A DNA stretch of 64,000 nt, taken from assembly GCA_000002435.2 (NCBI GenBank), contig CM018791.1. The stretch is one strand, 5' to 3'. The DNA is from Giardia intestinalis. Taxonomy: Eukaryota. Of this stretch, positions 2,604 through 63,582 are shown piece after piece (position 1 is the stretch's first letter; the number at the start of each line of letters is the position of its first letter). A program made the translations under genes and the position numbers. The notes beneath the pieces were generated by a model. That model was not told the origin of the DNA. It did no database searches and saw nothing but the letters and a program-made list of their open reading frames with translations.

Positions 2604-2605
2604 AG

Positions 2606-4525: not shown

Positions 4526-4582
4526 CCCCTCTTTTCTGAGAGCCGCGGAAATTTAAAAAGCTTCGTCCTTTGCTTTTACCCC

Positions 4583-5104
4583 ATGTCGCTTTCGCCCATC
4601 AGCATGAAGACAAGCCATTGGCAATATAGGAGGCCCACAAAGCAGCACATGAGCTGGGACTACTTTGAGTTGCTGAATCTTTACCGCGCAATAACTTTCG
4701 CAGGACTGAGTTACCTCAGCGGTGACGGTTTGCCAGAGGATGACTTGGTGATTGAGCAGTTTTATACTCTGAAAAAGGACTATATAAAGAAGTTTGAGCC
4801 TCTGGCCGTTTATCAAATGTATAGGGCACAAGTTCAGCGTACTCTGTTGCTAGGGGTAAATCATGATTGGATGACCTCCTTGCTGAGCATAGTTTTCCGG
4901 CTGTTGCGCGCAGAGGCGTGTATTCCTCATGAGAAGATAATGGCAGTCATAAATAACTTAACAAACCACGTCCACGAATACATCAAGGAAAATGCAGAAC
5001 ACAGGATATCTGGCTTTCTTGAGCGGTGGTCCCTTTCTAATAATGTTTTGCCTTCTCGCTGTCCGTCGGCCCACTTCAAACGCACCACAAGGGAACGAAT
5101 TTAA
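4583..5104 (+). CDS. Hypothetical protein, 173 aa.
   Basis: ATG-initiated ORF with codon and composition like its neighbours. No family recognised. Confidence 0.45.
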   Translation: MSLSPISMKTSHWQYRRPTKQHMSWDYFELLNLYRAITFAGLSYLSGDGLPEDDLVIEQFYTLKKDYIKKFEPLAVYQMYRAQVQRTLLLGVNHDWMTSLLSIVFRLLRAEACIPHEKIMAVINNLTNHVHEYIKENAEHRISGFLERWSLSNNVLPSRCPSAHFKRTTRERI

Positions 5105-12000: not shown

Positions 12001-14172
12001 AAATCGCACAATGGCTTCTACGAAGAAAACTCTGCACTGAACAGGTTTGAAGAGAAGATGACGGACACCAGCTCCACATATGATGAGTACGACGACTATG
12101 AAGGGCTGGAAAACCATGAGGCCGCGCTCTTCATCATGACAACCGACAAGACAGATGTGGAAGAGCTACGTGAGATCCTGACAAACTACAAGATCAACAA
12201 TAAGATATCTGTCTCTTCAGTTGAACAGGTTAGAAAGTTGATTTGTTCTTCTAAGCGGTGCTTGGCGTACGTCAGGGACAACTTTTCCGTTAACTTTTGG
12301 TTTGTCAAGTTTAAGCAGTTAGTGGACACGGGAAAGGAGGAAGCCATTTTGGTCCTTATCCTCATCTCCACTATTGCCAGGCTTGACTTTCCATTCTGTA
12401 GAGATATCTTTTTGATGGGCCTCATTCCACTTGCTAATAGATTGTACAGTACGTATAGCACAATCAATGAGTTCCTAGATAGATGGATACTCCCGCTTTT
12501 AGTGAAGCTTATCTCAGAATATGAAGAGGACAGTGCTATTCTTCAACAGCGCGCTAATCACAAAACTGACATGCCAACTGACATGGCTCCTTTAACTGGC
12601 AAGCAGCAAACCTGTGGCTCACAGCCTTCTGAAGTAAAAAGTAAAGAAGCAGGGAGAAGGAGCACAACCACCAAAGGAAACAGCTATGCTGTGATGCGGA
12701 TTTTTGAATCCATGATCGTCACCCACACTATGTCGTTCATTTTACGATTTTTATTTTCTCCTATTCAGACTGGACACCAGAGCAAGAATTCTTTCATTCC
12801 TACTTCTACAGCATGTGACTCTCTCTCGCTAATAATGGGCAAAATATCTGACCCTTCACATAAGGCCATCGAGCCGCATGAGCTTGCATACAATATTCTT
12901 CTCATTCTGTTTCAGAGCAAAACCATTTTCAAGTCGGAAATCCTCTGTGAGATAACTAGTCCGGACTCTCCTTTATTACATACCTTGATGGAGCACGTTG
13001 ACAAGTCCATTGTGTATGTTTTTCTGCTACAAGACCTTCTATTCATAGAAGCAATGCGAGAGACCGTCTTAGCGCTTCTTCCGAGACTATTTAAGAAGCT
13101 CCAAAAGATGATGGATGCATATGAACTCATGTACACCGCCGCTTCACATGACGAGGATGACTACGATCTATCTGCATCCTTGCATATTGACTTCTCGACC
13201 TTTGCTGCTGGGATACGTACGCATAACACCAATGTTGCCAACATCATAGCTATCGGGTCTATCACAACATTAGAACCCGATAGCCTGCGCTACAATCTTA
13301 CCATTCTGTTGACCGCGATCACCAACTTGCTAATTAGTCTTAGCAAGCTTGTAGCCGAGCCCTACTTTTCAGAACCTTTTAAGGATCACATAGACGTATT
13401 TGTTCAGGTCCTTAGCAAGAGTTCAGACTATGGAAATGCTGTTCCTTATGCCCTTTCATCTTTGCACTCGCTTTTCCGGCTCAATCTGGACTATATCGTC
13501 AACTTTCCAAGAATAAAGCACATCATGACCAACATAGGAACAATCCTCAACTGTAAAGAAGCAGCAAATATATATTCACTTCAGTTTGCAATACCATTGG
13601 CATTAACAATCACTAGAACAATCAACCCAAATAAATTCGCAGACAAGGAAATTAAGCATGTTTTAATAAAGGAGATCAAGGAAAACTTCTTGCTAGCATT
13701 TCTAGACTTGATTGAGAATAGCTCCGTGTGGAGAAAGCAGTGCCTAGATGCCCTGGCCCACATTTTATCCTACACAAATGAACTAGAGTCCACAATATGC
13801 CGCGATTTCAGACTCTCGTTAAGCAGTTCTGATTATAAGGAGACCCTTCCTTCAATCCTGACCTCCCTTCTATCGCTAAGCGAGAATAGCTCCACGATTC
13901 GCTCTTACCTGGCTAATCATAAAGAACTCGCAGCAGGGGTCACCTATGTACTCAAGCATACTTCTAAGGATAACGTGAACTCCAAGGTTGTTGCACTCAA
14001 GCTCTGCCTAAAGTTCAGCTTAAATTGCAAGGAGTACTTCGTAAATACCTACAAGAGCGTTCTCTCCATGCTGCCACAGTTCTGCGACATGAACACAGAT
14101 CAGTTCGTTATCGGAGCCAGCATCAGTAAGCAGATTCTGGATGCTCTAAAGCTAAACAGCAGTAACAATTAG
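9046..14172 (+). CDS. 1708-aa protein with an N-terminal protein-kinase-like domain that is predicted catalytically dead, a long low-complexity middle and a C-terminal helical (ARM/HEAT-like) region.
   Basis: Kinase fold landmarks: AIKIY (beta3 Lys), HKRITPEHILI in place of HRDLKPENIL (catalytic Asp lost), ISDFVL in place of DFG, and APEEILL (APE). The C-terminal ~600 aa are helical and hydrophobic-periodic. AT-rich context aaaaaagtaaATG. Confidence 0.6.
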   Translation: MKRDKLLLNGKYSINVKTNGERTYKALCNIDGIVPAIKIYRLSDVSKSSVDFDQKEIDTAARSLLQPNLVKYIEAFADKEYFYVVMEFVPNSLDQIIAHQRSTEHLAALYVTQIVKGLIFIHYNGYTHKRITPEHILITNDGFVKISDFVLQNAYFADGDKDVRDMAPEEILLLGRTTAVDIWNLGLLLFNCLAREHFFKNMADQEIIRLFQSTNAQNTINELVTFRLAECNLNVSQACKEFILACLSIDYTFRPSAQSLLQASFLKQTNTEIVCGKTGASTLNQNQIDEIQALNDVSAGLTTLTSQIPDKGHAATNIQSTLNHVVTKSAKQLTTIPPPTPPYSNFSRAQETEGDSKTISSGFNKQDQEILRRAILNIPSASEECRNSYAISAGDAATLAAMRSPEKAINTFTCIPATANFPMPDDAPNNKQKLRAKSIEAGAKQGKKLKHRVENKLECVDNQLDDSSFDLQDVKIIGKLEVKRYEDSTTGDNFSDVIENDPAVDKGHHLGGSVADHIQSKPRLIQTNSAVSSSNLNPQKKNQTKTQRTASKPARNHALSAGDDLIYDAAAADKHSEKIHPKTRKTQRAMSTVTTRAIAKQPTYQNAYSRNAGAAAGTARQDPCYTTLATGWAKREMNTKSKRNFPEQSLLTTTKDPVFPIAQTALKRTTCPLSLDTLDDHWNSNSYSSDDNILKNSSLKHTNCPYRAPDGNNSCSEISCTDMVNPLSSKSHHKSIFGDERSKDHSDKLIASLSIENNAQGPENLDMFVDKSQKSGTKKVSLTRSDFPKDSLHTAPISPESPQEIKTYVDNDINEAYTFSTVSAEPVQPFVLHFGGSPAATSRLCTVTNLDKRSSRQENCQNDDPSINLDTIALPQDQDIMSLMHKRQLMLQQMDPHMDDTSSAFSSGTSMANLEKKAAVIESGKDTPKSGAASPSRLVYQQKNSSADNIANNHLGLAKDVLANQQKRQCTDPSSLSASTDMLTQKSHNGFYEENSALNRFEEKMTDTSSTYDEYDDYEGLENHEAALFIMTTDKTDVEELREILTNYKINNKISVSSVEQVRKLICSSKRCLAYVRDNFSVNFWFVKFKQLVDTGKEEAILVLILISTIARLDFPFCRDIFLMGLIPLANRLYSTYSTINEFLDRWILPLLVKLISEYEEDSAILQQRANHKTDMPTDMAPLTGKQQTCGSQPSEVKSKEAGRRSTTTKGNSYAVMRIFESMIVTHTMSFILRFLFSPIQTGHQSKNSFIPTSTACDSLSLIMGKISDPSHKAIEPHELAYNILLILFQSKTIFKSEILCEITSPDSPLLHTLMEHVDKSIVYVFLLQDLLFIEAMRETVLALLPRLFKKLQKMMDAYELMYTAASHDEDDYDLSASLHIDFSTFAAGIRTHNTNVANIIAIGSITTLEPDSLRYNLTILLTAITNLLISLSKLVAEPYFSEPFKDHIDVFVQVLSKSSDYGNAVPYALSSLHSLFRLNLDYIVNFPRIKHIMTNIGTILNCKEAANIYSLQFAIPLALTITRTINPNKFADKEIKHVLIKEIKENFLLAFLDLIENSSVWRKQCLDALAHILSYTNELESTICRDFRLSLSSSDYKETLPSILTSLLSLSENSSTIRSYLANHKELAAGVTYVLKHTSKDNVNSKVVALKLCLKFSLNCKEYFVNTYKSVLSMLPQFCDMNTDQFVIGASISKQILDALKLNSSNN

Positions 14173-20067: not shown

Positions 20068-20859
20068 ATGACCCGAGACGAGGAGATGATGTTTACGCTT
20101 CGCACCGGGGCAATTCCCCAGCTTCCCAGTCCAGAAGTTGTTCCATCCACCACTGGGGCCGAGGAGTTACATCAGATGATCATCCTGAAGGAGTGGAAGC
20201 GGGTCTGGTATCTTGGCGGTCATGGGGGCGTGCTCATTGAGATAGCTACACCATACGACGACGTTCGCAGAGGTAAGATGAACTGTCTACACTATGCGGC
20301 TCTAACGGGATCTACTGAGGCTGTGCGCTTACTCATGCAATCTGCGGGTAGGAAGGCGGCAAAGATCTTTATTATCAATGGCCCCAAGTACCATAATCCA
20401 TCTGCCTTGATGTTGGCTGCAGCTGGGGGACACACAGAGGTTGTGCAGCTCCTTATGAACGCGGAAGCACGCATGACAGAGGATTGGGGTGGCAAGACTG
20501 CGCTCATGATTGCCGCTTGGAATGGACATTGCGATGCTGTGCTCCTTTTGGCCGATGCTGAAGCCCGAATGCAGGATAACGCTGGGATGACTGCTCTGAT
20601 GCTTTCGGTGTGGACGGAGATGCCGGGGTGCACCTCTGTCCTGGCTCCTCTAGAGGCCGGTCTGATGGATGCATCTGGTCATACTGCGCTGTGCCACGCG
20701 TGCATGCACGGCTCGGTTGACTGTGCTAGACTTCTTGCTCCTCACGAAGCGGGTCTCCGCCTTCCCAGTGGGCAAACAGTTGCAGAGGCTGCCCTCTCCA
20801 AGACTCCTAGCCAGTACAAAGATGCTGTTGCTAACGTTCTAGCATCGTTCTTGCAGTAG
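20068..20859 (+). CDS. Ankyrin-repeat protein of the Giardia 'protein 21.1' type.
   Basis: Tandem ANK repeats CLHYAALTGSTEAVRLLMQ / SALMLAAAGGHTEVVQLLMNAEARMTEDWGGKTALMIAAWNGHCDAVLLLADAEARMQDNAGMTALM. AT-rich initiator ccaaataaaaagccattATG. Confidence 0.8.
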   Translation: MTRDEEMMFTLRTGAIPQLPSPEVVPSTTGAEELHQMIILKEWKRVWYLGGHGGVLIEIATPYDDVRRGKMNCLHYAALTGSTEAVRLLMQSAGRKAAKIFIINGPKYHNPSALMLAAAGGHTEVVQLLMNAEARMTEDWGGKTALMIAAWNGHCDAVLLLADAEARMQDNAGMTALMLSVWTEMPGCTSVLAPLEAGLMDASGHTALCHACMHGSVDCARLLAPHEAGLRLPSGQTVAEAALSKTPSQYKDAVANVLASFLQ

Positions 20860-27974: not shown

Positions 27975-29927
27975 ATGGGCGGAGAAACCTTCGAAGATCA
28001 GTTTGAACCCATAGAGTTATTGGGCAGTGGTTCTTTTGGGAAGGTGCACAAGGTCCGCTCGCGCAAGGATGGACGTATCTACGCCTGCAAGGAGATAGAG
28101 TACACCAAGATGAGCTCCAAGGAGGTATCCCTTCTCCAGTCCGAGGTTATTAATCTTCGACGCATGAGCCACCCACACATTATCGCCTATTACTCCACGA
28201 TTCACGATCAGGATGCGTCCGTGGTCTTCATCATCAATGAGTACTGTGGGAAAGGCGATCTGACAAAATACATTCGGACTTATCGCCAGAAGAAGGAGAA
28301 CATTCCTGAGGCCACTATATGGAGTATGTTCCATCAGATGGCCCTTGCCTTGGAGTATTGCCACTCTCCGAACAAACCTGGTTTCAAGCCAGGGGAGATT
28401 GTCATTCACAGGGACATCAAGCCTGCAAACGTCCTCATCACAGATGACGACCAGCTGAAGCTGGCAGACTTTGGTTTTTGCCGCACGATTGGGCTTGACA
28501 CCATGGCACAGACCAAGGCAGGTTCTCCTGTTTACTGTGCGCCGGAGGTACTGCGCGAGGAGGACTACAACGAGAAGGCAGACATATGGTCTCTCGGCTG
28601 TGTCATCTATGAGCTCTGCTGCGTCGAATACGCGTACAGCAGCATCAATGAGAAGTTTCTATTGATATCTATGATGCAGCAGAAGCGAAAACCCATTCCT
28701 TCTTGCTACAGCCGTGACTTGGCGGAGGTGATTGAGCGGATGCTGCAGGTTGATTTCAAGAAGCGTCCGAGTGCCACAGAGCTCCTAGCCCATCCCAAAT
28801 TCAAAGAGTATAACCTTACCCGAGCCAGTAACAAGAGTCCTGCCCTTGCTGCTGCTCGCATCTCTGGGCCTTCTAGCAAGCCCCCGGCCTCTGGCAACAC
28901 TCCTTCCCAGACACCTCAACCGGGTACTGCTGCTGCCAAGAATGCTGCGTCCCTCGGTCGTGTTTCTGGCTCACCGGAGCGGGCACTCCCAGCGTCAACA
29001 GGACAGTATGGCTCCAATCTAGTTGCACCGCCCTCGCGCGGAGCTATCGCTACCACACCTACCGTTCCTACCAATGCCAGCAAGGGCGCCCCTAAGGATT
29101 CTGGACAGCTTCATGACGTGATTGTGAGACAGAAGAAGGAGATTGATGAGCTAAAAGCGAGAGTGTCGTCAGGGTCGACGTCCCATGGTATTTCCGAGAA
29201 CGCCAGGAACACAATAGTCAAGGCAAGTGATGAGATTAAGAAGAAGGACGACGAGATTATTCGCTTGTCCGACACTGTCTTTAATAAGGAGGAGGAGAAT
29301 GCCGCTCTGCGCCGCGAAATAGCTGCCTACGAGAAGTTCACAACTACCGTTCTGATGCCCAGACCGGGCGAGAACCCACTCGCCGATGGTGTGACAAGGC
29401 TTATGCTTGCTGCGCAGAAGGGCCTTACTGCGGTTGTACAGCACCTTCTTTCTCAGGAAATTGGGCTTCGAAGTGCCTCTGGGAAGACTGCCCTCATGTA
29501 TGCTGCTGAGAATGGACAGAACGCGTGTGTCCGTCTGCTAATGGACAAAGAAGGAGGGATGCAAGACAACAAGGGGACCACTGCCCTTATGCGTGCAAGC
29601 ATTGGCGGACGCTTTGAGACGTGCAAGATTCTCTTCGCTAGGGAGTCCGGCATGCAGTCTCAGGAAGGCGATACGGCGCTGACCTACGCCACGATACGTG
29701 GGAACACAGAGATTATACGACTGCTTGCTCCGCGCGAGGCAGGCCTCCAGTTGAAGGACGGAAAGACAGCCCTTATGAGTGCAGCGTCTCGTGGCTTCCT
29801 GGAGGCGGTCAAGATACTCTACGATCGGGAAGGGAAACTCGTTGATAAGAATGGGCGCGACGCTCTCTACTACGCCCAGCAGAAAAATCTAGGAGATATA
29901 ATCGCCTTCTTGCAGTCTAAGAGGTAG
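27975..29927 (+). CDS. NEK-family Ser/Thr kinase, predicted active, with coiled-coil and C-terminal ankyrin repeats.
   Basis: LGSGSFGKV, YACKEI, HRDIKPANVL, DFG, CAPEV and DIWSLGCVIYEL. The C-terminal repeats TALMYAAENGQNACVRLLMDKEGGMQDNKGTTALMRAS are 21.1-type ANK. Confidence 0.9.
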   Translation: MGGETFEDQFEPIELLGSGSFGKVHKVRSRKDGRIYACKEIEYTKMSSKEVSLLQSEVINLRRMSHPHIIAYYSTIHDQDASVVFIINEYCGKGDLTKYIRTYRQKKENIPEATIWSMFHQMALALEYCHSPNKPGFKPGEIVIHRDIKPANVLITDDDQLKLADFGFCRTIGLDTMAQTKAGSPVYCAPEVLREEDYNEKADIWSLGCVIYELCCVEYAYSSINEKFLLISMMQQKRKPIPSCYSRDLAEVIERMLQVDFKKRPSATELLAHPKFKEYNLTRASNKSPALAAARISGPSSKPPASGNTPSQTPQPGTAAAKNAASLGRVSGSPERALPASTGQYGSNLVAPPSRGAIATTPTVPTNASKGAPKDSGQLHDVIVRQKKEIDELKARVSSGSTSHGISENARNTIVKASDEIKKKDDEIIRLSDTVFNKEEENAALRREIAAYEKFTTTVLMPRPGENPLADGVTRLMLAAQKGLTAVVQHLLSQEIGLRSASGKTALMYAAENGQNACVRLLMDKEGGMQDNKGTTALMRASIGGRFETCKILFARESGMQSQEGDTALTYATIRGNTEIIRLLAPREAGLQLKDGKTALMSAASRGFLEAVKILYDREGKLVDKNGRDALYYAQQKNLGDIIAFLQSKR

Positions 29928-33499: not shown

Positions 33500-34789
33500 A
33501 TGTATACTTTGTTGGTGTTCATACTGTCGAATCCTCTGCATATCCTATTAAAAGCACGCTCTTACACAGGAACCTTTTCGGCATGCACTAAGGACAATGC
33601 AGTTGTTCGTAGATTGCAATCTAACGATCTGTTTCTGCTGTTGGCTAATCCAATTAAAGTGGCCGCAGAGGACAACCTACCACAATCTGTTGACTTAAGG
33701 GAGTACGGCCTTATGACTCCTGTCAGAAACCAGGGTAAGTGCGGCTCGTGCTGGGCGTTTGCAACCGTTGCAGCCTTCGAGGCGTGTGCCCTGTATGATG
33801 GCGTCCTTTACCCTTACGGAAGTCCACTTGGCAGACACACAGACCTCCTGCACATCTCTGAGGAGTTTGAAATCTTGAGCTCCACGTCCAATAACCTCTG
33901 CTCAAGTGGCAACGTGGTGCGATTGATTAATGACCACCTGACGGGAGTAATTCCCACTGTAGAATTGGAGGAAAACTTTCCTTACAGTTTGAGTGACAAT
34001 ACTGAAAGCGAGCCCCCCGCACACCCCCTGCAGCCTGCGATTCCACCCGAGGAGTATGTGCTTCCAATTTATTCTGAGACAAAGCTAGGGCATAAAGCAG
34101 GGGTCATAGTGCTTTACAACAGAGACAATCCCTATAATGACTCAATTGCACAGCTGGTGAAAACGTATCTGTCACTGGGGGTTCCTGTGATGGCTACGAT
34201 TAACACGTGGGCTAATGGAAGGAAAGGTCACCGGTTAATTAAGCGTTATCGCGGTGGCATTTTGAGCGCACCGTGCCGTAATACAAGCCTGGATCACGAG
34301 GTGCTCATTGTTGGATATGGACGGTATCGAGGTACTGCCGTTTGGATAGTTCGCAATTCTTGGGGAGCTGACTGGGGAGTCTATGGGTATGCATATGTGG
34401 CCCAGGGCGGTGACAGCTACTGCTTGGAGCACAGTGCCATTGCTGTTCTTCCCCGGACACTCGATCCGACCGCCAAGTACGCATCCTTCTCTACGCATCC
34501 ACCTCCGTCTCCGCTCCTCCGGCCGATATATGAGGGCACTATTGTACGCTGTGAAAACGGGCTCGATGCTGATCCACCGGAGGGTTGCAGCCCATTCACT
34601 AGGGGCAGCTCGCCCGCGCTCGGGGCCAGCATCGCCCTCATACTCACAACCATAGCAGCTATAGGGAAATTTACTCACCAGCCCAGCCCCTTAATCAACC
34701 TTCGTCGTCATGATCGCGTCGAAAATGCGAGTGTCAGGAACAAGGTCACTGAAGCAATAATCACCGAAGTGCTCGGAATTATCGGATAA
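33500..34789 (+). CDS. Papain-family (C1A) cysteine protease with a signal peptide, a short pro-region and a C-terminal extension ending in a hydrophobic anchor-like segment.
   Basis: Catalytic Cys block QGKCGSCWAF, His block LDHEVLIVGYG, Asn/Trp block VRNSWGADWG, N-terminal hydrophobic MYTLLVFILSNPLHILL, and C-terminal LGASIALILTTIAAIGKF. Confidence 0.8.
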   Translation: MYTLLVFILSNPLHILLKARSYTGTFSACTKDNAVVRRLQSNDLFLLLANPIKVAAEDNLPQSVDLREYGLMTPVRNQGKCGSCWAFATVAAFEACALYDGVLYPYGSPLGRHTDLLHISEEFEILSSTSNNLCSSGNVVRLINDHLTGVIPTVELEENFPYSLSDNTESEPPAHPLQPAIPPEEYVLPIYSETKLGHKAGVIVLYNRDNPYNDSIAQLVKTYLSLGVPVMATINTWANGRKGHRLIKRYRGGILSAPCRNTSLDHEVLIVGYGRYRGTAVWIVRNSWGADWGVYGYAYVAQGGDSYCLEHSAIAVLPRTLDPTAKYASFSTHPPPSPLLRPIYEGTIVRCENGLDADPPEGCSPFTRGSSPALGASIALILTTIAAIGKFTHQPSPLINLRRHDRVENASVRNKVTEAIITEVLGIIG

Positions 34790-35626
34790 GACAGTCATTA
34801 TCTCGGCGAGATTCTTCTGCATCATCATCTGGTTGAAGCGGCGCTCCTCCGAATTCTTCTTGAGGATGGGGAGATACTTCGCCACGCTCTCTGCGAAGGA
34901 CTTGATCTTCTCGTTCATGCCACTGATGACGTGCTTCTTCTGAAGCTTTATGTTTCTCTCGGATGCGTCGAAGGACTCCTTGAAATTGCTGACCTCCTGG
35001 TTAAGCCTGTTGGCAGCTTGGGCGAACTCCCTCTCTATGATTGCCTCGAGCGAATTAATCTCCGTCTGGAGCCCGTGGCGAAGGGCGTCGAGCTTTGACT
35101 GGCCCGCGCGGATCCTGGAGTGGACCTCAGAGCGGAACGTGGACTTATACTGCTTTGTCTTGCCCACAAAGTCTGCATTCTCCGCGTCGAACGCCTTGAG
35201 CCTCTGCTCCATCGAGAAGACCTCGTCGATGAGGGGGCGGAGGGATGCGTTCAGGTGGGACACCAGCTCGGCGCGGCGGGCAGCGAACTGCTTGGCGACT
35301 TCGGACCTCAAGTCGGTAGACTCCAGCTCGCGGATGTTCTTTGTGGACAGAATGTCATTCTTGAGGTTGTTGAGGGTGATCATTATCTCGGAGGAGTCAG
35401 CGTGGCTGAACTTCGGCCTGAAGTCGTTCACCATGTGGTCCTGGAACATCTTAGAATTGAACATAAGGTCGTCAACCTTGTTCTCGGATATTAGGGATAG
35501 AGTCATGTACCCAGGGTCTTCCACCGCATTGGTGAGCCTCAGCGAGTCGCGGATGGTCGTAGGAGCGTCTTTAACTGCGAACTTGTGGTCCGAATAGGAG
35601 CTGACGGTCGAGAACGATGACTTCAT
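34691..35626 (-). CDS. Coiled-coil cytoskeletal protein, probably of the SF-assemblin/giardin family (beta-/delta-giardin/SALP-1-like).
   Basis: 311 aa, almost entirely heptad-periodic helix (EVAKQFAARRAELVSHLNASLRPLIDEVFSMEQRLKAFDAENADFV...). The size and composition match giardins. No motif-level proof. Confidence 0.4.
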   Translation of the reverse strand: MKSSFSTVSSYSDHKFAVKDAPTTIRDSLRLTNAVEDPGYMTLSLISENKVDDLMFNSKMFQDHMVNDFRPKFSHADSSEIMITLNNLKNDILSTKNIRELESTDLRSEVAKQFAARRAELVSHLNASLRPLIDEVFSMEQRLKAFDAENADFVGKTKQYKSTFRSEVHSRIRAGQSKLDALRHGLQTEINSLEAIIEREFAQAANRLNQEVSNFKESFDASERNIKLQKKHVISGMNEKIKSFAESVAKYLPILKKNSEERRFNQMMMQKNLAEIMTVLSDNSEHFGDYCFSDLVPDTRIFDAIMTTKVD

Positions 35627-35867: not shown

Positions 35868-38800
35868 TCAGACATACGCTCGAAGGCATTTGATCACCTC
35901 CTGATTACCGGTCTGGCTGGCGATATCCATCACGCTTGTTCCGTCCGGAAGAGAAACACCAATTTCATGATCTGCCAGGATCTTGACGCAGTCCACAAGG
36001 CCTCTACAAACGGCGATCATCAGAGCTGTCTCCCCATTTTGACGCTGGATACACTTTTCCGTCTCGACAAGAAGACGCACGCACTCTGTGTGTCCCCTCT
36101 CGGTCGCATACATGAGAGCTGTTGTGCCATCGTTTTTACGCATGCGTGACTCGCGATTCATAAGAGACCCAACGATGTCAGCGTATCCTGCGTCAGCAGC
36201 ACACATTAGGGCAGTCTTTCCGTCTGGCCTGCGGGAGCCGCCCTCTGAATCTATAAGCACTTTCACAACATCATAGGCCCCCAGAGCAGCAGCTTTCATC
36301 ATTGCCGTCTCCTCATGAAGGTCGCGCATGCATGCCTCGTCCTTTAAGAGGGTGTTGGCTATGTCTGGCCTGTTGTTCGCCGCCGCAATCATCAGAGCAG
36401 TGAGTCCTGCTTTGGTCTGGAACTTGCACTCACGCTCCAGTAGCAGATTTGTAATCTGTGCAAAACCCATTTTGGCGGATATCATTAGCGCAGTCCACTC
36501 ATCGTTATTCTTCAATCCTGCCTCGTACTCCAGGAGCTCCTGTACTACAGAAGCACGGCCTGCCTTGCACGCATAGATGAGCGCCGTGTTTCCAAAATCG
36601 TCGCGCAAGCGAGCCTCACGAGGCATGAGAGTCCTCACAATGTCGACCCAACCGCACTCTGCGGCAATCATAAGCGCTGTAACTCCCTTGCCCGTGACCA
36701 TTCTGGCTTCGTGGGTGTACAGCTGCACTACAGAGTTGGTGTTGCCCTTGTGCGCCGCATACATCAGGGCAGTCATCCCAGCGGAGTCTTGTGTCTTGGA
36801 TTCTTTGTCCAAAAGTAGCTGTATGGCGTCGAAATTGTCAAAGTATGCGGCTAGCATGAGGGCCGTGACGCCCCTGTCGTTGGCAATACGACACTGCGTT
36901 GGCAAGTACTTCTGGACGAGTCGCATATCGTCACGAATCACTGCTTTCATAAGGGGTGTCGTACCATCTGGATCGGTAATATGCATGTTTTCATCTTCTG
37001 GGGTTATCCTGGAATCATATGCAGCACGAAATTGAGCTATCTGACCTGGAAAATTAGGGAAGTATGTAGAATTGAGTATCTTGGACGATGTTATACCCTC
37101 AGCTTGACCTGGATATAACGTGGATTGAATACCCTGTCCTATGTTTATCATCTTTGCCGTACGGGTCTGCACGGGCACCCCCGGGAATCGGCCCTGCTCA
37201 TTCTTCTGAGCTATAACATGGTCGAGCTGCTCGACTGTCGAATCTATCTGATCAGAGCGAAACAGACTATTGTCCCTGTTATTGGCTCTAAAACTGGAAT
37301 CCTTGCCGTCATATGCTTCGGTGTCTCCAACGACTTTCGATAAACTGGATCGGTTTCCTGAAGTATTACCACCAGACTGTCTGCGGCGATATGCCAATTC
37401 GTCGCGGTACATCCCGGTTATATCGGTGTCTGCTGCGCCTTGCGCGTCGTTCGTAGCACGCACACTACCATCGTTCTGATTGTAAATTGGGGACGTGTCA
37501 TCGATGGAATTGTCATAATTATGCGAGGCGGAGTTCATTTCCAGAAGGTTTCTAAAACTTGGAGAGAGGCCATTATTAATCGACGTGTTTCCAGGAAGCT
37601 CTGCTCCTGTACGCATGCTATCCACACGGCTACTTATGATCCGGGTTGCCTCACGACTATATGTAGGTGCAGCATATAACGTGGTGGCAACCGCAGCCCC
37701 GGGTGTGAGACTGCTTCTAGTGACGGGTTCATTTCGCACGCCCGGGACATTGCTGTGTGAACTTATAAGATCGTCAACGCTGAGACTATACATGCCAACA
37801 TTATCGGTCATGTAAGCAGCCCGCTCGCGGTTGTCAGCGGAGTTGGCATCTAAGTTTTGCTGAATGCGCATACTCATCTGGCTTGCATTCATCCCAGTCC
37901 CAGTATCCTCTGCAGCATTCTTAAACTTCCTCTCTGTGGGGCCCACTTGACTAGCTCGGAAAGATTCACGCCACTTCTGCGCAAATGACCCCGAGTCCTC
38001 CTGGTACCTGTCACGATTCTCAGGTGCCATTTGTTTGTATCCAAATTCAGTCATAATGTTGACCACAGGTTCTAGTCCGCAGATATAAGTAACAGACGCC
38101 CTGGAGCGTGGATCAATACAGAGCATTCTTCTAATGAGATCAGCAAACTCGCGGCTATATCCTGGCAATCGCAGATTGGGAAGCACTGCCTGTACTTGAG
38201 TCCGCGCATCCTCCGCTGTAGGGTTTTTGACAAAAGCCTGAAGGGTTGCTAATTCGTACGTGATGCAGCCAAGCGACCAGATATCAGATCTCTCCGATGG
38301 GTTGGCGCCCTCAAATACCTCTGGAGCCGTATACACGGACTTTGCTGACGCCTTCGCCATATACCCAGGATCCAAAATGTGTTCAATCCTACTAGTGTCA
38401 ATCTTATAAACGCCATCCTTGGTCACTAAAACACTAGCCGGTGTAAGAGTGCGGTAGTGATTTGGAGTCGAGGGGAGCATCCCCGGGCGCACTCCAGTGT
38501 GGTAGTACTTCAGGGCCTCTGCGAGCTCCCCAATGATCCGGATGATGGTTCCTTCGCCTATTTGCTCGCGGGACTTCCAATACGCATCAATCATGTAGCG
38601 CAGATTGTTATGGGAGTTAAGCTCCGTAACGACGTAAACCTTCTGCACTTCCTGGTCATAGATGATCTCCATGACACGCAGCATATATGGATGAACAATA
38701 GAAAGAAGCTCCTTGATAGAGGCGTGGTCAAATCCGTTGTAGCCGCTGTCAAGGTGCCTAACTGAATACTCGCGGCAGGAGAATGGTAGTCCGTCATTTT

Positions 38801-38888
38801 TACGCTCTACAGAGTACCACGTGCTCTCACTACCCTCCTCAATGGCGTGTCGAACCGTGTAGCGATTGGCGAAGGCAATGCGCAACAT
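35868..38888 (-). CDS. NEK-like pseudokinase with a C-terminal ankyrin-repeat array (21.1-type).
   Basis: Kinase fold with degenerate catalytic motifs: no Gly loop (IEEGSESTWYSV); FSCREY (Lys to Arg); HYRTLTPASVLV in place of HRDxKPxN; KIDTSR in place of DFG. APEVF and DIWSLGCITYEL are retained. More than 9 ANK repeats (TALMLAAYFDNFDAIQLLLDKESKTQDSAGMTALMYAAHKGN...). Confidence 0.8.
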   Translation of the reverse strand: MLRIAFANRYTVRHAIEEGSESTWYSVERKNDGLPFSCREYSVRHLDSGYNGFDHASIKELLSIVHPYMLRVMEIIYDQEVQKVYVVTELNSHNNLRYMIDAYWKSREQIGEGTIIRIIGELAEALKYYHTGVRPGMLPSTPNHYRTLTPASVLVTKDGVYKIDTSRIEHILDPGYMAKASAKSVYTAPEVFEGANPSERSDIWSLGCITYELATLQAFVKNPTAEDARTQVQAVLPNLRLPGYSREFADLIRRMLCIDPRSRASVTYICGLEPVVNIMTEFGYKQMAPENRDRYQEDSGSFAQKWRESFRASQVGPTERKFKNAAEDTGTGMNASQMSMRIQQNLDANSADNRERAAYMTDNVGMYSLSVDDLISSHSNVPGVRNEPVTRSSLTPGAAVATTLYAAPTYSREATRIISSRVDSMRTGAELPGNTSINNGLSPSFRNLLEMNSASHNYDNSIDDTSPIYNQNDGSVRATNDAQGAADTDITGMYRDELAYRRRQSGGNTSGNRSSLSKVVGDTEAYDGKDSSFRANNRDNSLFRSDQIDSTVEQLDHVIAQKNEQGRFPGVPVQTRTAKMINIGQGIQSTLYPGQAEGITSSKILNSTYFPNFPGQIAQFRAAYDSRITPEDENMHITDPDGTTPLMKAVIRDDMRLVQKYLPTQCRIANDRGVTALMLAAYFDNFDAIQLLLDKESKTQDSAGMTALMYAAHKGNTNSVVQLYTHEARMVTGKGVTALMIAAECGWVDIVRTLMPREARLRDDFGNTALIYACKAGRASVVQELLEYEAGLKNNDEWTALMISAKMGFAQITNLLLERECKFQTKAGLTALMIAAANNRPDIANTLLKDEACMRDLHEETAMMKAAALGAYDVVKVLIDSEGGSRRPDGKTALMCAADAGYADIVGSLMNRESRMRKNDGTTALMYATERGHTECVRLLVETEKCIQRQNGETALMIAVCRGLVDCVKILADHEIGVSLPDGTSVMDIASQTGNQEVIKCLRAYV

Positions 38889-38972: not shown

Positions 38973-41426
38973 CTATGCACTTATGGTAAGGTCGTTATCG
39001 TGATGCTCTAGGGTAACTTGTAAATGATTGGCTTCGGCTGCATCGCACGCCTGAAGAAGCGATGTGAAACGACAAGTATGTTGTGCAGTAGAAGAAGGGG
39101 CTTCGAAAAACGTAGCTAGAGCTGAAGAGTATCCCTCAGTAAGCCGCGCCCTAAGGGTTTTTGTACAAGTCTTGCGCACTTCCTCCAACTGTTTTGCCGT
39201 ACTATTTCCCCGACCAACGCCGTGTTCCTTTACCATACACCCATCATCTTGCTGTAAGCATTTAAGAATCTCTGGTACCATGTACATTATAGCAAGGGCG
39301 TCTGAAACAAGGGAGTGTTGTGCCTGAGTGGTTGTCTCAGGAAGATCACTGCTAATGCTATCAAGAAATGTGACGCTTTGGCTATCTTCGTGTTCTTCTT
39401 TATTGGTAACTATCGTGGAAGAAGATCCTGTCTCAGTTACACTAGTAACAGACAGTACAGATGAAGCACCGCTCCTGATACCAGTCTGCTTGGCCTCTGG
39501 CTCTCTTTCTGCAAAGCCAGTTGCTGATTTCTCTAAGGATACCGCGCTAAGCCTACGATCTTCCTGACCACGTGCATAACTAACTGCCTGGTCATATACT
39601 GCCTGTAATGATGTTAGAAGAATTTGTACACATGTGCTGTCCTTCTCAGCTGACTTAGCCACTCTTTCTGCGCTAGTGGATTGCTGATTAACTATTGTGT
39701 CCGCCTTAAACATCAGAGGCTCAACGAAGGTTCTATTGTTCATGTATAAATGTGCGTAGCGCCTCTGTATCTTGTCTACACAAACAAGCTCTATAGATAT
39801 CAGCTCAAAGCTATTGCAAATAGATGCAAGAAGTCCTTGCTCCTCAGCTGTGTGTTGCAAAGGATCCCTAGCTAATTTAAAGAGTATGGTAAATGCAAAC
39901 TGAGCATAGATTGTTGGAAGACTTATATCCTTTGCGAGCATGTTGGTCGAAAGGATAGCATCTTTGATCGCAGCTTCAGAAAGGCCCTTGCAGCGAATAT
40001 TAGCTAGGACCGTTTGATTCTGTTGGTCACCCATGGCGAAGCATTCTTCGCTTTCCTCTAGATCGATGTCGAGTAGGCTTCTGACAATGTCTTTAAGGAC
40101 ATTTAGGAAAGAAGGATCATTACTTTCGATACTATGAGCCCTTGGTGATGAGTGCAAACTTCCTTCCAGAGAGATGTGATTGTGATAATAACGCAAGTAA
40201 GCTATCAGTGAATGGAAGCTGTAGGATCCTGCAGGTGGTTGCATTACTGAGCGAAGAGAGGCCAGACTGGCGACAATACTTTCAATAGAATGACCATTTG
40301 AATACAGCTCCCTACAGTGCTTCTGGAGATCGATAATACATGGCATAATTCGTTTGCACAATAAAGAAGCAGCATGATTGGTGACAGCTTCAATCTCGCT
40401 ATTTATTGACGTATTAATGCATTCAGCAATCTTTGTATAATCATGTTCGCTTTTCGATATGCGGTATTTTTCTGTTACAATATCAATTGATTTGGCCCCT
40501 ATGTGGTAGAAACTTCCAGAGAGTAGATTGTATCTATTCAGATGGCAATACCGCAGTGGCGGACTGTCAAGACACTTCCGCTGCAGTGGAAGAGTCAGTA
40601 AGTAGAAATTTCGATCCTCCTGTCGCACGTTGAGAAGGTTTCCCTTCCTGCTTTGTCTATGCGGAGAGCCGGGCATAAGAAGCGTGAACGTCTCCCCGTC
40701 GCGAGGAGGCGTCTCGTCGTGCTCGTGCCCTATGTACACAAAGTCTATGCGCTCTTCCGGGGCATGCGTATGATTCCACTGGTCGACGAATGAAAGGCTG
40801 ATCTTGTCTCTTCCAACCTGGTCTGAATAGTCTTGGTGAAGAACCAGGAAGGTGTATCGTGCATGCCTGCGTCCTCCTTTAGCGCCTCTCCCCACCGCTT
40901 CGTCCTCCAGAGCTGAGCGAGCGGCCGGGGCAAAGGAAATCTCGGGTGCCACATCTCTCTGCCACGCTTTGTGGTAATCCAGTCCGTACACGACGAGCTC
41001 TACGCCGCCAACTACCTGGCAGAGAGGATGGAGCGTAAGGCTTTTGCCGGCCTGAGTGTGCCCCAAGAGGCTCACCGCCCCGGCCGCCTCCAGGAGGCCC
41101 AAAATCTTATCGTTGTTGTCGTGGTTGCCGTAGATGAGGGCCATGGGTATCGAGTCGCCGTCGCTGTGGTCTGCAAAGGACGAGACCCCGTATCGTCTCA
41201 GTGCACAGATTGCCTTGATGACCTTCTTGCTGGACAGCCTGTTCTGGTTGAAGAAGTCTCCGGCGTGCAGGATAGCATGCGCGCCCAGCTTGCGGGCCAG
41301 ACAGAGGCACTCCTCAAGAAGCAGGTAGTTTTCGTGGGCATTGCAGGGGCGTGCAGACGGGGCAGTGAACCCGAGGTGTGTATCCGTGAATAGCGCGATC
41401 CTTGCGCCCGAGCTGTCTGCAGACAT
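38973..41426 (-). CDS. MRE11: Mre11 DNA double-strand-break repair nuclease. The track ORF begins with GTG at 41480; the real ATG is at 41426 (MSADSS).
   Basis: Calcineurin-like phosphoesterase motifs IALFTDTHLG, HAGDFFNQN, IYGNHD and GHEHD, in the Mre11 order. Confidence 0.85.
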   Translation of the reverse strand: MSADSSGARIALFTDTHLGFTAPSARPCNAHENYLLLEECLCLARKLGAHAILHAGDFFNQNRLSSKKVIKAICALRRYGVSSFADHSDGDSIPMALIYGNHDNNDKILGLLEAAGAVSLLGHTQAGKSLTLHPLCQVVGGVELVVYGLDYHKAWQRDVAPEISFAPAARSALEDEAVGRGAKGGRRHARYTFLVLHQDYSDQVGRDKISLSFVDQWNHTHAPEERIDFVYIGHEHDETPPRDGETFTLLMPGSPHRQSRKGNLLNVRQEDRNFYLLTLPLQRKCLDSPPLRYCHLNRYNLLSGSFYHIGAKSIDIVTEKYRISKSEHDYTKIAECINTSINSEIEAVTNHAASLLCKRIMPCIIDLQKHCRELYSNGHSIESIVASLASLRSVMQPPAGSYSFHSLIAYLRYYHNHISLEGSLHSSPRAHSIESNDPSFLNVLKDIVRSLLDIDLEESEECFAMGDQQNQTVLANIRCKGLSEAAIKDAILSTNMLAKDISLPTIYAQFAFTILFKLARDPLQHTAEEQGLLASICNSFELISIELVCVDKIQRRYAHLYMNNRTFVEPLMFKADTIVNQQSTSAERVAKSAEKDSTCVQILLTSLQAVYDQAVSYARGQEDRRLSAVSLEKSATGFAEREPEAKQTGIRSGASSVLSVTSVTETGSSSTIVTNKEEHEDSQSVTFLDSISSDLPETTTQAQHSLVSDALAIMYMVPEILKCLQQDDGCMVKEHGVGRGNSTAKQLEEVRKTCTKTLRARLTEGYSSALATFFEAPSSTAQHTCRFTSLLQACDAAEANHLQVTLEHHDNDLTISA

Positions 41427-41509
41427 CTTCCAGAACACCAGGATGCAATCAGAAAAAGATAGTGATTTTACAATGCACACGGAGGCCTCCCACAGGGGTC
41501 TACGCGTGG

Positions 41510-62172: not shown

Positions 62173-63582
62173 ATGAGCGATGAGCAGCCAGTTCAGCTCG
62201 GACAGTATGAGGTTTCGGAGCTGTTAGGGTCAGGGGCTTTTGCAAAGGTGCGCTTGGCAACCAGGAAGGATACGGGGAAGAAGTATGCAGTGAAGATCAT
62301 CAAGAAAGTGGGGCTATCTCAAAGAGCTGCCGACCGCCTAAACCTTGAGATTGCTGTCACAAAGGGCATTTCACACCCAAACGTCATAAAGATGCACGAA
62401 GTCATCGGGACGTCTTCAAAGTTCTGGCTGGTGATGGACTACCATGCCAACGGGGAGCTTCTAAAACACATGAAGACAAAATTGTCAGACGATCAGGCAT
62501 TTGACTACTTTATCCAGATAGCGTGCGCTCTTCGGTACTGTCACAGATTCGGGATTTGTCACCGAGACCTAAAGTTTGAAAATGTCCTGGTGGCGAATGA
62601 TGGGCATCTCGTGATAACTGACTTCGGTCTGGGAGCTATTTCTTACAACCCTGACAAGACCTTTTACTCACAGGCAACCTTCTGCGGCTCAACCCATTAC
62701 ATTGCTCCAGAGGTATCCTCTGGAAGCAGGTACGATGGGCGCAAATCGGATATCTGGTCCTTGGGAATCATGCTCTATGCCATGCTGATCGGCAAGCTGC
62801 CTTTCCCATCAGATAACTACGAGGTCCTTGTGGAGTCCATGCTTAATCGTCGCTATGACCCTATCCCTTCCTTTGTTAACGACCAGGCCAAGAACTTGCT
62901 GGAGGCGCTGCTGGAACCAGATCCTCGGACGAGACCCGACTGGAGGGAAATATTCAATTACCCGTGGATTGCATCGCGAGTCGCACTAGTGGATGAAGCT
63001 GGGCATACGGTGGACAAGTTCCCTAGTGAGATTACTGATACGGGTGTGCTCTGCAGAGTCATGCGAAAGAAGAAGGTGCATATGGAGATACCCCTTCATC
63101 CAAACAAGAAGTCGTACTCTGTCCTCTCCAACATACATGCTGCCTTAATGCAAACAAACAGCGCCCCAAGTACGGCTCAGCCTGTTTCTGATGAGGGATT
63201 CACCTGCCCCAGCTGTGGAAACATTGTGGTACCCCCTAAAACCGCCGATATAGCCAGCTACTCTGTCAAGAAGGCCATCATGATTTCAGACATAAGCATA
63301 TCAGATGCGCTGATTCTAGCTGCGTACGGTGTCAGAAAGGTGACGAAGAAACCGGTTGTGGTCTATCCTCACGAGTTTCGAGCAAGCTCGGACGTTCAGC
63401 TGATGGAAGCCCGCGTGTTCGGCACTCAGAAACTGGTCATCCTTATTGGTACTAACGACGCGGAGATGTACACGACGGTCAGTACTGTTCTGACAAACTT
63501 GGCAGCAGATAAGGCAAAGTTGTCTGCCATTACCCTAGGCCGAATTAATGACGTCTCAGTTGTTTGCGAAGATGCACGGTGA
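62173..63582 (+). CDS. CAMK-like (CAMKL/AMPK-related) Ser/Thr protein kinase, predicted active. The track start is GTG at 62155; the real ATG is at 62173 (MSDEQ).
   Basis: LGSGAFAKV, YAVKII, HRDLKFENVL, DFG, APEV and DIWSLGIMLYAML. AT-rich agtttaaaatttgaaATG. Confidence 0.8.
   Translation: MSDEQPVQLGQYEVSELLGSGAFAKVRLATRKDTGKKYAVKIIKKVGLSQRAADRLNLEIAVTKGISHPNVIKMHEVIGTSSKFWLVMDYHANGELLKHMKTKLSDDQAFDYFIQIACALRYCHRFGICHRDLKFENVLVANDGHLVITDFGLGAISYNPDKTFYSQATFCGSTHYIAPEVSSGSRYDGRKSDIWSLGIMLYAMLIGKLPFPSDNYEVLVESMLNRRYDPIPSFVNDQAKNLLEALLEPDPRTRPDWREIFNYPWIASRVALVDEAGHTVDKFPSEITDTGVLCRVMRKKKVHMEIPLHPNKKSYSVLSNIHAALMQTNSAPSTAQPVSDEGFTCPSCGNIVVPPKTADIASYSVKKAIMISDISISDALILAAYGVRKVTKKPVVVYPHEFRASSDVQLMEARVFGTQKLVILIGTNDAEMYTTVSTVLTNLAADKAKLSAITLGRINDVSVVCEDAR

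Follow-up and report, generated by a model that had tools for sequence, protein, structure and literature searches.

What keeps a protein kinase domain in place once its catalytic residues are gone? The question is raised by an open reading frame in the window, a 64,000-nucleotide stretch of Giardia intestinalis DNA (GenBank assembly GCA_000002435.2, contig CM018791.1), whose product carries a degenerate kinase domain of the NEK type ahead of a long array of ankyrin repeats.

35868..38888, minus strand: complete coding sequence of GL50803_17231, 'Kinase, NEK'; open from ATG to stop, 1006 residues plus stop codon

The initial annotation gave these exact coordinates but no strand. The translation matches exactly XP_001706275.1, KAE8302742.1 and A8BLD9 (G. 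intestinalis WB GL50803_17231, DAP17231), and the same sequence is present in Table S1 of Manning 2011 (Genome Biol 12:R66) as GL50803_17231, GK186. That entry reads 'Dead Nek - missing K72, D166', counts 12 ankyrin repeats, places the gene in Other/Nek/Nek-Unclassified and gives it 1:1:1 orthologues in WB, GS and P15. A reannotation from 2025 lists A8BLD9 (residues 1-297) among the pseudokinases carrying protein-interaction domains. GL50803_17231 is one of about 140 catalytically dead members of the Giardia NEK expansion; an initial annotation of the window had assigned it to this known and mostly inactive expansion, and Manning 2011 names the exact gene. Both the gene and its dead status were published in 2011 and listed again in 2025, as were the 12 ankyrin repeats and the placement at the disc edge. 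That the gene deserved a second look, as the initial annotation supposed, is undercut by a pseudokinase call and a subcellular location that have been in print since 2011. GL50803_17231 is not a discovery; it is a reasonable example for studying the maintenance of a pseudokinase domain.

38079..38861, minus strand: pseudokinase domain, residues 10-270 by Pfam (1-297 in the 2025 reannotation), recognised by PF00069, the NEK2 match and the AF2 model

Residues 10-270 align to positions 1-258 of the 263 positions of the Pfam profile PF00069 at 71.3 bits (E 1.1e-19; curated cut-off 31.7 bits). NEK2 (E 2.9e-17), NEK7 and NEK1 head the sequence matches in the PDB. The AF2 model of the domain (pLDDT 83.9, pTM 0.84) shows a complete bilobal kinase fold, for which Foldseek returned NEK2 and NEK7 as top matches (E 1e-18, TM 0.7-0.8) and at least 2000 PDB kinase chains at E≤0.001. 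The fold is intact, as had been proposed from the sequence. Human NEK2 and NEK7 share about 25% identity with the domain and, like it, have the insert typical of NEKs ahead of the catalytic loop and DIWSLGC in alphaF; unlike DAP17231 they are active enzymes with GxGxxG, the VAIK Lys, HRD and DFG, and carry no ankyrin repeats. A neighbor-joining tree of 63 kinase domains was saturated (distances 1.6-1.9), and even the clade joining GK186 of G. intestinalis with its G. muris counterpart received only 47% bootstrap; the placement among the NEKs therefore rests on the Manning classification.

The elements of the active site and of the C-lobe were located as follows, together with a live NEK of the same window that served for comparison.

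38823..38840, minus strand: degenerate glycine-rich loop EEGSES, residues 17-22, aligned to GTGSYG of NEK2 and GSGSFG of the live NEK
38766..38783, minus strand: beta3 strand FSCREY, with Arg39 in place of the ATP-anchoring Lys (PKA K72), from our own and published alignments
38430..38459, minus strand: catalytic-loop remnant HYRTLTPASV, residues 144-153, from alignments to NEKs and hhalign
38382..38405, minus strand: DFG-equivalent segment KIDTSRIE, residues 162-169, from hhalign, the Manning alignment and G. muris
38265..38333, minus strand: C-lobe structural motifs from YTAPE (residues 186-190) to DIWSLGC (residues 202-208), from alignments
38097..38114, minus strand: conserved Arg263, partner of the APE motif, in DPRSRA, from alignments
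27975..29927: live NEK with GSGSFG, YACKEI, HRDIKPAN, DFG and APE present

The glycine-rich loop reads ExGxxS. Only the middle glycine (G19) is kept and two of the three are gone; in G. intestinalis the loop also carries E17, E18 and E21, all acidic, and in the G. muris orthologue it reads IDPDLL, which contains no glycine. The claim that GxGxxG is missing was thus correct. Inspection of the catalytic positions, a check that the initial annotation had itself proposed, puts Arg39 at the catalytic Lys and Thr147 at the catalytic Asp. Arg39 occupies the Lys position in every alignment made, the published one included, and is invariant across all G. intestinalis lineages and G. muris. Pairwise and profile alignments agree in setting Y145-R146-T147 against H-R-D, so that the catalytic Asp (D166), already suspected to be lost, has given way to Thr147 in G. 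intestinalis and to Tyr in G. muris. The catalytic-loop Lys is replaced by Thr149. The catalytic-loop Asn is Ser152 in assemblage A only and is kept in assemblages B and E, in a fourth lineage (X) and in G. muris. The alphaC Glu, which the initial annotation did not mention, is also lost (Ser57) and has no conserved substitute. The alignment of the G. intestinalis and G. muris N-lobes shows no conserved alternative Lys, which makes a relocation of this residue in the manner of WNK unlikely. The dead motifs are invariant among six G. intestinalis sequences. By contrast with these losses, which had been set against a retained scaffold from the outset, APE is found at residues 188-190 and DIWSLGC at 202-208, and W204-S-L-G-C-I and P189-E190 are identical in the G. 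muris orthologue.

Given Arg39, Thr147, the missing alphaC Glu and the two lost glycines, canonical phosphotransfer by DAP17231 would not be expected. In Manning 2011 a pseudokinase lacks at least one of K72, D166 and D184; in DAP17231 K72 and D166 are both missing. The literature searched contained no knock-down, ATP-binding assay or kinase assay for DAP17231.

The DFG segment required closer attention, as its register differs between methods. In the curated Manning alignment and in a profile-profile alignment by hhalign, D164 stands in the column of the DFG Asp. Three gapless alignments (phmmer to NEK2, BLASTP to the live NEK, and a custom HMM built from a mixed set in which several members lack canonical motifs and one is a CAMKL kinase) place D164 one residue upstream and Thr165 in that column. 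This gapless register is not decisive: with the G. muris orthologue and the profile-profile alignment a one-residue gap opens that brings D164 onto the Asp. The syntenic G. muris orthologue reads DFT at this position, and the segment D-x-[ST]-R-[IL]-E is conserved to G. muris (DFTRLE) with D164 invariant. D164 probably corresponds to the DFG Asp, which would then be retained; pseudokinase status does not depend on this residue. The reading of DFG as changed to IDTS was right in that a canonical DFG is absent (KIDTS), but the Asp itself is probably kept. Likewise, the statement that every catalytic element is degenerate holds for the glycine-rich loop, the Lys and HRD, and goes too far for the DFG Asp and for the Asn, whose replacement by Ser152 is confined to assemblage A. 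Among the Lys and Asp residues that might have been overlooked by eye at catalytic positions, K72 and D166 are truly absent and the DFG Asp is probably present as D164. The probable D164 and the Asn outside assemblage A leave room for residual metal or nucleotide binding.

The remainder of the protein consists of a linker and the ankyrin array.

36981..38063, minus strand: Ser/Ala/Asn/Arg-rich linker, residues 276-636, from composition and dN/dS
37959..38018, minus strand: conserved island in the linker, residues 291-310, NRDR..QKWRESF, from BLASTP against G. muris
37044..37100, minus strand: conserved island in the linker, residues 597-615, EGITSSKILNSTYFPNFPG, from BLASTP against G. muris
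35871..36980, minus strand: ankyrin array, residues 637-1006, 12 repeats (Ank_2, 371 bits in 10 stretches)

The array is composed of 11 units of the TA[LM]M type with an exact period of 31 residues (starts at 644 to 954) and a C-terminal cap. Its 12 units bear out the long array first proposed and equal the count in Manning 2011. TALM is exact in eight of the 11 units, the other three reading TPLM, TALI and TAMM, and Glu occupies repeat position 22 in all units but one (10 of 11). With an N-terminal kinase domain followed by TALM repeats with the conserved Glu, DAP17231 has the features of the TALM-ankyrin NEK subclass. It is a literal member of the class of dead NEKs with TALM-type ankyrin repeats described by Manning 2011, with no categorical difference from it. 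Within that class it is among the members that are stable in evolution: each strain has a single orthologue, G. muris has a syntenic copy, and the gene lies outside the GL4 subfamily, whose members turn over rapidly.

Purifying selection on the gene is strong. Its dN/dS is 0.02-0.04 overall and 0.013-0.043 in the kinase domain; only values from the pair of assemblages A and E serve as estimates, comparisons with assemblage B or lineage X being saturated (dS 1.3-4.7, some undefined). By module, the A-E ratio is 0.043 for the kinase domain, 0.066 for the linker and 0.011 for the ankyrin array, lower than for the neighbouring cathepsin, IFRD, Metallophos and TUTase genes. The array is the most constrained module; the linker is the least constrained, and the indels between assemblages fall within it. 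No frameshifts or stops were found across five G. intestinalis lineages or G. muris, and G. muris possesses a syntenic full-length orthologue, 59% identical in the ankyrin array versus 32% in the kinase domain. A dN/dS estimate had been suggested as a means of telling conservation from decay, and together with this orthologue it favours conservation. Within the kinase domain, conservation as far as G. muris is limited to the C-lobe core and the short pseudo-activation segment. In dN the domain outpaces the neighbouring live NEK by a factor of 12-17, which, taken with the 32% identity to G. muris, indicates that constraint on the kinase domain is moderate.

The live NEK, listed as 'Active (K,D,D present)', is separated from the dead gene by 5.9 kb, in agreement with the 6 kb first noted. 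Identity between the two kinase domains is 29%, and a syntenic counterpart of the live gene is missing from G. muris. An origin of the pair by tandem duplication was rejected on these grounds; they are not recent duplicates, and their proximity looks incidental. A further reading frame (62173..63582), which phmmer matched as a possible third NEK, is annotated as CAMK/CAMKL and was set aside.

The nearest paralogue clade by distance comprises GL50803_16879 (GK297) and G. muris TNJ28203.1. Like DAP17231, GK297 is a dead NEK, with about 10 ankyrin repeats, Cys-Arg-Glu in beta3, an [LI]TP catalytic loop and the motifs WSLGCI.YEL and LPGYS. It differs in that its kinase domain is only about 28% identical and its DFG region reads LLTD where DAP17231 has IDTS. 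The sister relationship of GK297 and GK186 received only 41% bootstrap in the saturated tree, which was dropped as proof of a dead ancestor; that the two had a common ancestor, already dead, is a suggestion only. Proteins of the Protein 21.1 family (for instance 20068..20859 of the window) carry the same TALM-type repeats of 31 residues but have no recognisable kinase domain, whereas DAP17231 keeps a complete and selectively maintained one. Manning 2011 proposed that NEKs and Protein 21.1 form one family, in which the latter resemble NEKs minus the kinase domain, and did not see the fusion of NEK and ankyrin repeats outside Giardia.

DAP17231 was identified in the proteome of isolated, detergent-extracted ventral discs, and its C-terminal GFP fusion was located at the 'disc edge' (Hagen 2011). 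The same study grouped it with the disc-associated proteins of the lateral crest and called it a likely pseudokinase, and 17231-GFP has been used elsewhere in the literature as a marker of the lateral crest. Its description is matched by DAP13981 (Hagen 2011), with NEK-ankyrin architecture, disc-edge or lateral-crest location and likely pseudokinase status; crest immunogold and the lack of recovery in FRAP are on record for DAP13981 and neither for DAP17231. DAP17231 becomes more abundant early in encystation, at 4 h, during dismantling of the disc, and it appears in a secretome list. The listing and the early rise hint at roles or pools beyond a static lattice.

Taking these data together, we consider DAP17231 a probable (roughly 0.6) structural or scaffolding subunit, stably built into the lateral crest, with the ankyrin array docking and the pseudokinase domain serving as a further protein-binding module. 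The folded NEK-like pseudokinase domain is tethered through a long, mostly low-complexity linker to a rigid 12-unit solenoid of TALM-type repeats. The solenoid, as the most conserved module, would provide the main docking surface into the lattice of the crest and disc margin. The pseudokinase domain may act as a second, non-enzymatic protein-binding module, putatively through the alphaF-alphaG surface of the C-lobe (WSLGCI.YELATL..F..NPT) and the fixed pseudo-activation segment D-x-S/T-R-I/L-E, a surface to which conservation alone points. By analogy with DAP13981, which did not recover in FRAP, DAP17231 may be stably incorporated at the crest. The initial annotation had taken the retention of APE and DIWSLGC as a sign of a conserved scaffold and not of decay, a view that the low dN/dS and the G. 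muris orthologue support. A comparable arrangement is that of integrin-linked kinase (ILK), in which ankyrin repeats and a pseudokinase serve as a non-catalytic adaptor at a cell-attachment structure. In ILK, unlike DAP17231, the ankyrin repeats are N-terminal, the kinase domain is TKL-like and binds ATP, and the context is actin and integrin, not a microtubule disc. The resemblance would be one of analogy, without homology beyond the kinase superfamily.

Alternatively, the dead domain could be regulatory: at the disc margin it would bind an active kinase or phosphatase (active NEK, aurora, ERK1 and PP2A being candidates) and control it allosterically or localise it, the ankyrin array acting only as an anchor; the role of the protein would then lie in disc assembly and disassembly or in opening and closing of the seal. 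Many pseudokinases act by regulating partners, among them STRADalpha, KSR and HER3. D-x-S/T-R-I/L-E and alphaF-alphaG stay conserved as far as G. muris in a domain that otherwise drifts, as expected of a partner interface, and the increase at 4 h of encystation coincides with disc dismantling. A regulatory role for NEK pseudokinases of the disc was raised by Hagen 2011 and in a 2018 preprint on disc composition. We nevertheless regard this as rather unlikely: DAP17231 has no known partner, it remains with the disc on detergent extraction as structural disc proteins do, the related DAP13981 shows no turnover at the crest, and the strongest constraint lies on the ankyrin array and not on the kinase domain.

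A cryptic activity or nucleotide-dependent switch, in which a pocket of Arg39, Asn152 (in most lineages) and D164 binds nucleotide or metal for atypical catalysis or conformational stabilisation, appears improbable. The beta3 Arg is strictly conserved and not random, the Asn persists in B, E, lineage X and G. muris, and D164, which does not vary between G. intestinalis and G. muris, is matched to the DFG Asp by both the curated and the profile-profile alignment. Mammalian KSR carries the same Lys-to-Arg change and still binds ATP. Hagen 2011 cautions that loss of such residues need not abolish activity. On the other hand, the phosphate-binding loop is not conserved (E17, E18 and E21 in G. intestinalis; no Gly and two prolines in G. 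muris), the alphaC Glu is gone with nothing conserved in its stead, a rescue by another N-lobe Lys is unlikely, Thr or Tyr stands in for the catalytic base, and Asn152Ser is tolerated in assemblage A. The more specific proposal that Arg39, Asn152 (all lineages but A) and D164-x-S/T-R-I/L-E form a nucleotide or metal switch that alters crest packing is a long shot.

Finally, that the kinase domain is a relic without function and in the course of being lost, with only the ankyrin array of importance as in Protein 21.1, could draw on its 32% identity to G. muris against 59% for the array, on a dN more than 10-fold that of the live NEK and on the view of Protein 21.1 as NEK-like minus the kinase domain (Manning 2011), but it is already disfavoured and very improbable in the face of a kinase dN/dS far below neutrality (0.013-0.043), a reading frame free of frameshifts and stops in all five lineages and G. 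muris, a confident and complete fold in AF2, and the retention of APE, WSLGC and the APE-partner Arg across the split between G. intestinalis and G. muris.

As a stable subunit of the crest, DAP17231 would belong to a structure that forms the seal needed for attachment in the gut, and the components of the lateral crest are for this reason of practical interest. If the ligand switch were true, DAP17231 would regulate how the seal at the disc margin opens and closes, and hence Giardia attachment. DAP17231 represents a pseudokinase under strong purifying selection whose protein sequence has yet evolved more than 10-fold faster than that of a neighbouring active paralogue.

The open reading frame at 35868..38888 (-) runs from ATG to stop over 1006 codons, exactly as delimited in the initial annotation, and its translation is identical to G. 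intestinalis WB clone C6 XP_001706275.1 / KAE8302742.1 (UniProt A8BLD9, 'Kinase, NEK'). In Pfam searches PF00069 matched residues 10-270 with 71.3 bits (cut-off 31.7) and Ank_2 matched the C-terminal third in 10 stretches with 371 bits. The gene is listed in the Giardia kinome table as GL50803_17231 (kinome ID GK186; group Other, family Nek, Nek-Unclassified), with 1:1:1 orthology across strains WB/GS/P15, 12 ankyrin repeats and the remark 'Dead Nek - missing K72, D166' (Manning et al. 2011, PMC3218828), which bears out its earlier placement in the mostly inactive Giardia NEK expansion. In a 2025 reannotation, A8BLD9 (1-297) belongs to the pseudokinases that also have protein-interaction domains (PMC12538575). 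As a comparator we used the second NEK-ankyrin gene, GL50803_113553 (GK162), at 27975..29927 (+), which encodes 650 aa, matches PF00069 with 220.6 bits, also carries ankyrin repeats (5 in the Giardia kinome table) and is entered there as 'Active (K,D,D present)'.

The catalytic residues of the GL50803_17231 product, the disc-associated protein DAP17231, were read in four kinds of alignment (phmmer against human NEK2, BLASTP against GL50803_113553, L-INS-i multiple alignment, and profile-profile alignment by hhalign with 17 kinases whose GxGxxG/HRD/DFG are intact). Motif coordinates in the window were confirmed by translation. All four agree on the following residues of DAP17231:

GxGxxG position: E17-x-G19-x-x-S22
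beta3 Lys position: Arg39
alphaC Glu position: Ser57
H-R-D position: Y145-R146-T147
Catalytic-loop Lys and Asn positions: Thr149 and Ser152
Retained: APE (188-190), alphaF D202-IWSLGC and the APE-partner Arg263

The motifs named in the initial annotation are therefore correct: there is no GxGxxG, the beta3 Lys is Arg, the catalytic Asp is replaced by Thr147, and APE and DIWSLGC are kept. Its wider statement that every catalytic element is degenerate is slightly overstated in view of two positions. The first is the DFG Asp. In gapless alignments D164 stands one residue ahead of it and Thr165 occupies the Asp column; the curated family alignment of Manning has D164 in that column, as does hhalign with the G. 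muris orthologue in the query profile, where a one-residue gap follows I163. The region reads ML-DFT-RLE in G. muris and KI-DTS-RIE in G. intestinalis, a recognisable DF(G) remnant. The DFG Asp is thus probably retained as D164, in keeping with Manning's list of missing residues being K72 and D166 only. The second is codon 152 (38433..38435, -), which encodes Ser only in assemblage A (WB, DH) and Asn in assemblages B and E, in a fourth lineage (Logan run ERR3333383) and in G. muris. The pseudokinase assignment, as read from the alignments, stands unaffected by either refinement.

That the kinase fold is intact, as first proposed, is supported by an AlphaFold2 model of residues 1-297 (mean pLDDT 83.9, pTM 0.84; shallow input alignment of 16 sequences), which predicts the expected beta-rich N-lobe and helical C-lobe and whose best PDB matches in Foldseek are NEK2 (5M51, E 1.1e-18, TM 0.71/0.80) and NEK7.

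An exhaustive phmmer search with the kinase domain against 1.84 billion representatives gave 648 bits for the self-cluster and then a steep fall to 170, 131 and 123 bits. The 131-bit match is Giardia muris TNJ30291.1, a positional orthologue lying in the order Metallophos, (a methyltransferase), TNJ30291.1, gamma-giardin, Peptidase_C1, IFRD. Identity to it is 56-59% in the collinear ankyrin array and 32% in the kinase domain; for the neighbours it is 94% (gamma-giardin), 45% (cathepsin), 35% (IFRD) and 34% (Metallophos). The G. muris protein is also dead: its beta3 Lys is replaced by Arg and its catalytic Asp by Tyr, its G-loop is free of glycine (IDPDLL), and Met stands in place of the alphaF Asp. 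Inactivation is thus older than the split between G. intestinalis and G. muris. Still present in the G. muris protein are the catalytic-loop Asn, D-F-T-R-L-E, SPE with its partner Arg, and W-S-L-G-C-I. The parts preserved since the split are a short pseudo-activation segment and, in the C-lobe, the core and the alphaF-alphaG surface (WSLGCI.YELATL..F..NPT). Among paralogues, the clade nearest to DAP17231 is formed by GL50803_16879 (GK297) and its counterparts. It has the Cys-Arg-Glu signature in common with DAP17231, and GK297 is likewise listed as 'Dead Nek - missing K72, D166', with 10 repeats. Because the bootstrapped NJ tree is saturated and gives 41% support to the sister relationship, descent of the two from one ancestor that was already dead is no more than suggested.

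The ankyrin array (35871..36980, -) consists of 11 units starting T-A/P-L/M-M/I at residues 644, 675, ... 954, spaced by exactly 31 residues (canonical 33) without register slip and with Glu at repeat position 22 in 10 of 11, followed by a C-terminal capping unit; this fits the 'TALM-ankyrin' class and Manning's 12 repeats. Judged by eye, the repeats of GL50803_113553 are likewise spaced by 31 residues. Between kinase domain and array lies a Ser/Ala/Asn/Arg-rich linker of 361 residues, which contains all inter-assemblage indels. Two linker islands are kept in G. muris, NRDR..Q.WR.SF (aa 291-310; 37959..38018, -) and, directly ahead of the array, GITSSK.L..SYFPN.P (aa 597-615; 37044..37100, -); they are candidate short linear motifs or a candidate solenoid N-terminal cap.

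Orthologous loci from assemblage B, assemblage E/P15 and the fourth lineage were compared; gene order is conserved (Metallophos, GL50803_17231, a 311-aa gene, cathepsin, IFRD, AAA, cyclin, GL50803_113553, TUTase). The fourth lineage, a more divergent member of the G. intestinalis complex, is represented by a 7286-bp Logan contig (ERR3333383) with the orthologue at 2004..5036, 85-90% protein identity and a linker insertion of 4 residues. By the Nei-Gojobori method, with A-E the sole unsaturated pair (dS about 0.5-0.7), overall dN/dS of GL50803_17231 is 0.02-0.04; for A-E it is 0.043 in the kinase domain, 0.066 in the linker, the highest of the three, and 0.011 in the ankyrin array. Values for other genes are:

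gamma-giardin: 0-0.004
AAA: 0.012
cyclin: 0.045
TUTase: 0.052
IFRD: 0.10
cathepsin: 0.17
Metallophos: 0.14-0.19

The pseudokinase domain is clearly under purifying selection, and FSCREY, HYRTLTPA[S/N]V and YKIDTSRIEH are unchanged in 6 of 6 G. intestinalis sequences. The direct comparison of dead and live genes envisaged at the outset has a sharp outcome: across A, B and E the kinase domain of GL50803_17231 shows 14-22 non-synonymous differences and that of GL50803_113553 shows 0-2 (dN/dS 0.000-0.002), so that dN is 12-17-fold higher in the former, where computable. The live domain (27975..28814, +) is itself extraordinarily conserved, with 0-2 aa differences at dS 0.5-1.5.

The two kinase domains are 29% identical, and no syntenic copy of GL50803_113553 was found at its position in G. 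muris, which is occupied by a kinase/ankyrin gene of 1149 aa and an ankyrin gene of 541 aa. The Giardia genome is about 12 Mb in size. It holds 198 NEKs (Manning et al. 2011, PMC3218828), so occasional NEK neighbours are expected, and the proximity of this pair, 6 kb apart, appears incidental. Further kinase or ankyrin genes in the window are:

9046..14172 (+), STE11 kinase, 1708 aa
20068..20859 (+), small ankyrin-only 'Protein 21.1 / Ankyrin repeat protein 1', 263 aa
62173..63582 (+), CAMK/CAMKL kinase, 469 aa

NEKs are thus two of the four kinases. Gamma-giardin, a ventral-disc microribbon protein (34691..35626, -; also L005 12929..13864), lies 241 bp downstream of GL50803_17231 on the same strand; assemblages A, B and E encode one and the same gamma-giardin protein (dN = 0 at dS 0.3-0.7). 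The adjacency of two disc proteins, kept in G. muris, may be fortuitous or may point to co-regulation. The cathepsin-like Peptidase_C1 frame (33500..34789, +) converges on the gamma-giardin 3' end, overlapping by 99 nt in WB, the same in the assemblage B gene call and only 4 nt in P15 (429/472/399 aa); its extra C-terminal stretch may be artefactual, a matter of annotation or of ORF length. Upstream, Metallophos (38973..41480, -), the fastest-evolving gene of the neighbourhood, has a mechanical 835-aa frame starting at GTG; as orthologues have 817-820 aa, translation probably begins 18 codons downstream, at the ATG (MSADSSG...).

GL50803_17231 was found in the shotgun proteome of detergent-extracted ventral discs, and its C-terminal GFP fusion was scored 'disc edge' and grouped with ten proteins presumed to belong to the lateral crest, the disc rim (Hagen et al. 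2011, PMC3243723). 17231-GFP served as a lateral-crest marker in a 2017 preprint; the FRAP (no recovery) and immunogold data pertain to DAP13981, another lateral-crest NEK-ankyrin pseudokinase. DAP17231 also appears in encystation proteomics (up at 4 h) and in a secretome list. Of the 13 disc NEKs counted in a 2018 preprint on disc composition, 9 lack catalytic residues and 5 combine NEK and ankyrin domains. The literature searched held no knock-down, binding or activity data for GL50803_17231.

DAP17231 thus combines a NEK domain with a predicted kinase fold and crippled catalytic residues, a linker that is long and flexible, and a rigid solenoid of 12 repeats. All three are under purifying selection, the solenoid being the most constrained. 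We infer, with a probability of about 0.6, that DAP17231 is a lateral-crest subunit with a structural or scaffolding role: the solenoid would dock into the crest/disc-margin lattice, and the C-lobe of the pseudokinase would offer a second surface for protein binding. An unlikely alternative is a regulatory role, in which DAP17231 as a pseudokinase would recruit an active enzyme to the disc margin or control it there. Residual nucleotide or metal binding, or atypical catalysis, via R39/N152/D164 is improbable: the G-loop is acidic, glycine-poor and unconserved in G. muris, and there is no substitute Lys or alphaC Glu. A decaying relic, already disfavoured in the initial annotation, has both the dN/dS values and the conservation in G. 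muris against it and can hardly be entertained.

A scaffolding DAP17231 would have a functional likeness to ILK, an ankyrin-plus-pseudokinase adaptor, by analogy only. In all testable defining features it is an actual member of the published Giardia dead-NEK/TALM-ankyrin class. Gene, class and pseudokinase status are already known. Small additions are made here: the probable retention of the DFG Asp as D164, the restriction of Asn152Ser to assemblage A, a measured difference in selection between the dead and the live NEK, conservation to G. muris resolved by module, and the two linker islands kept there.
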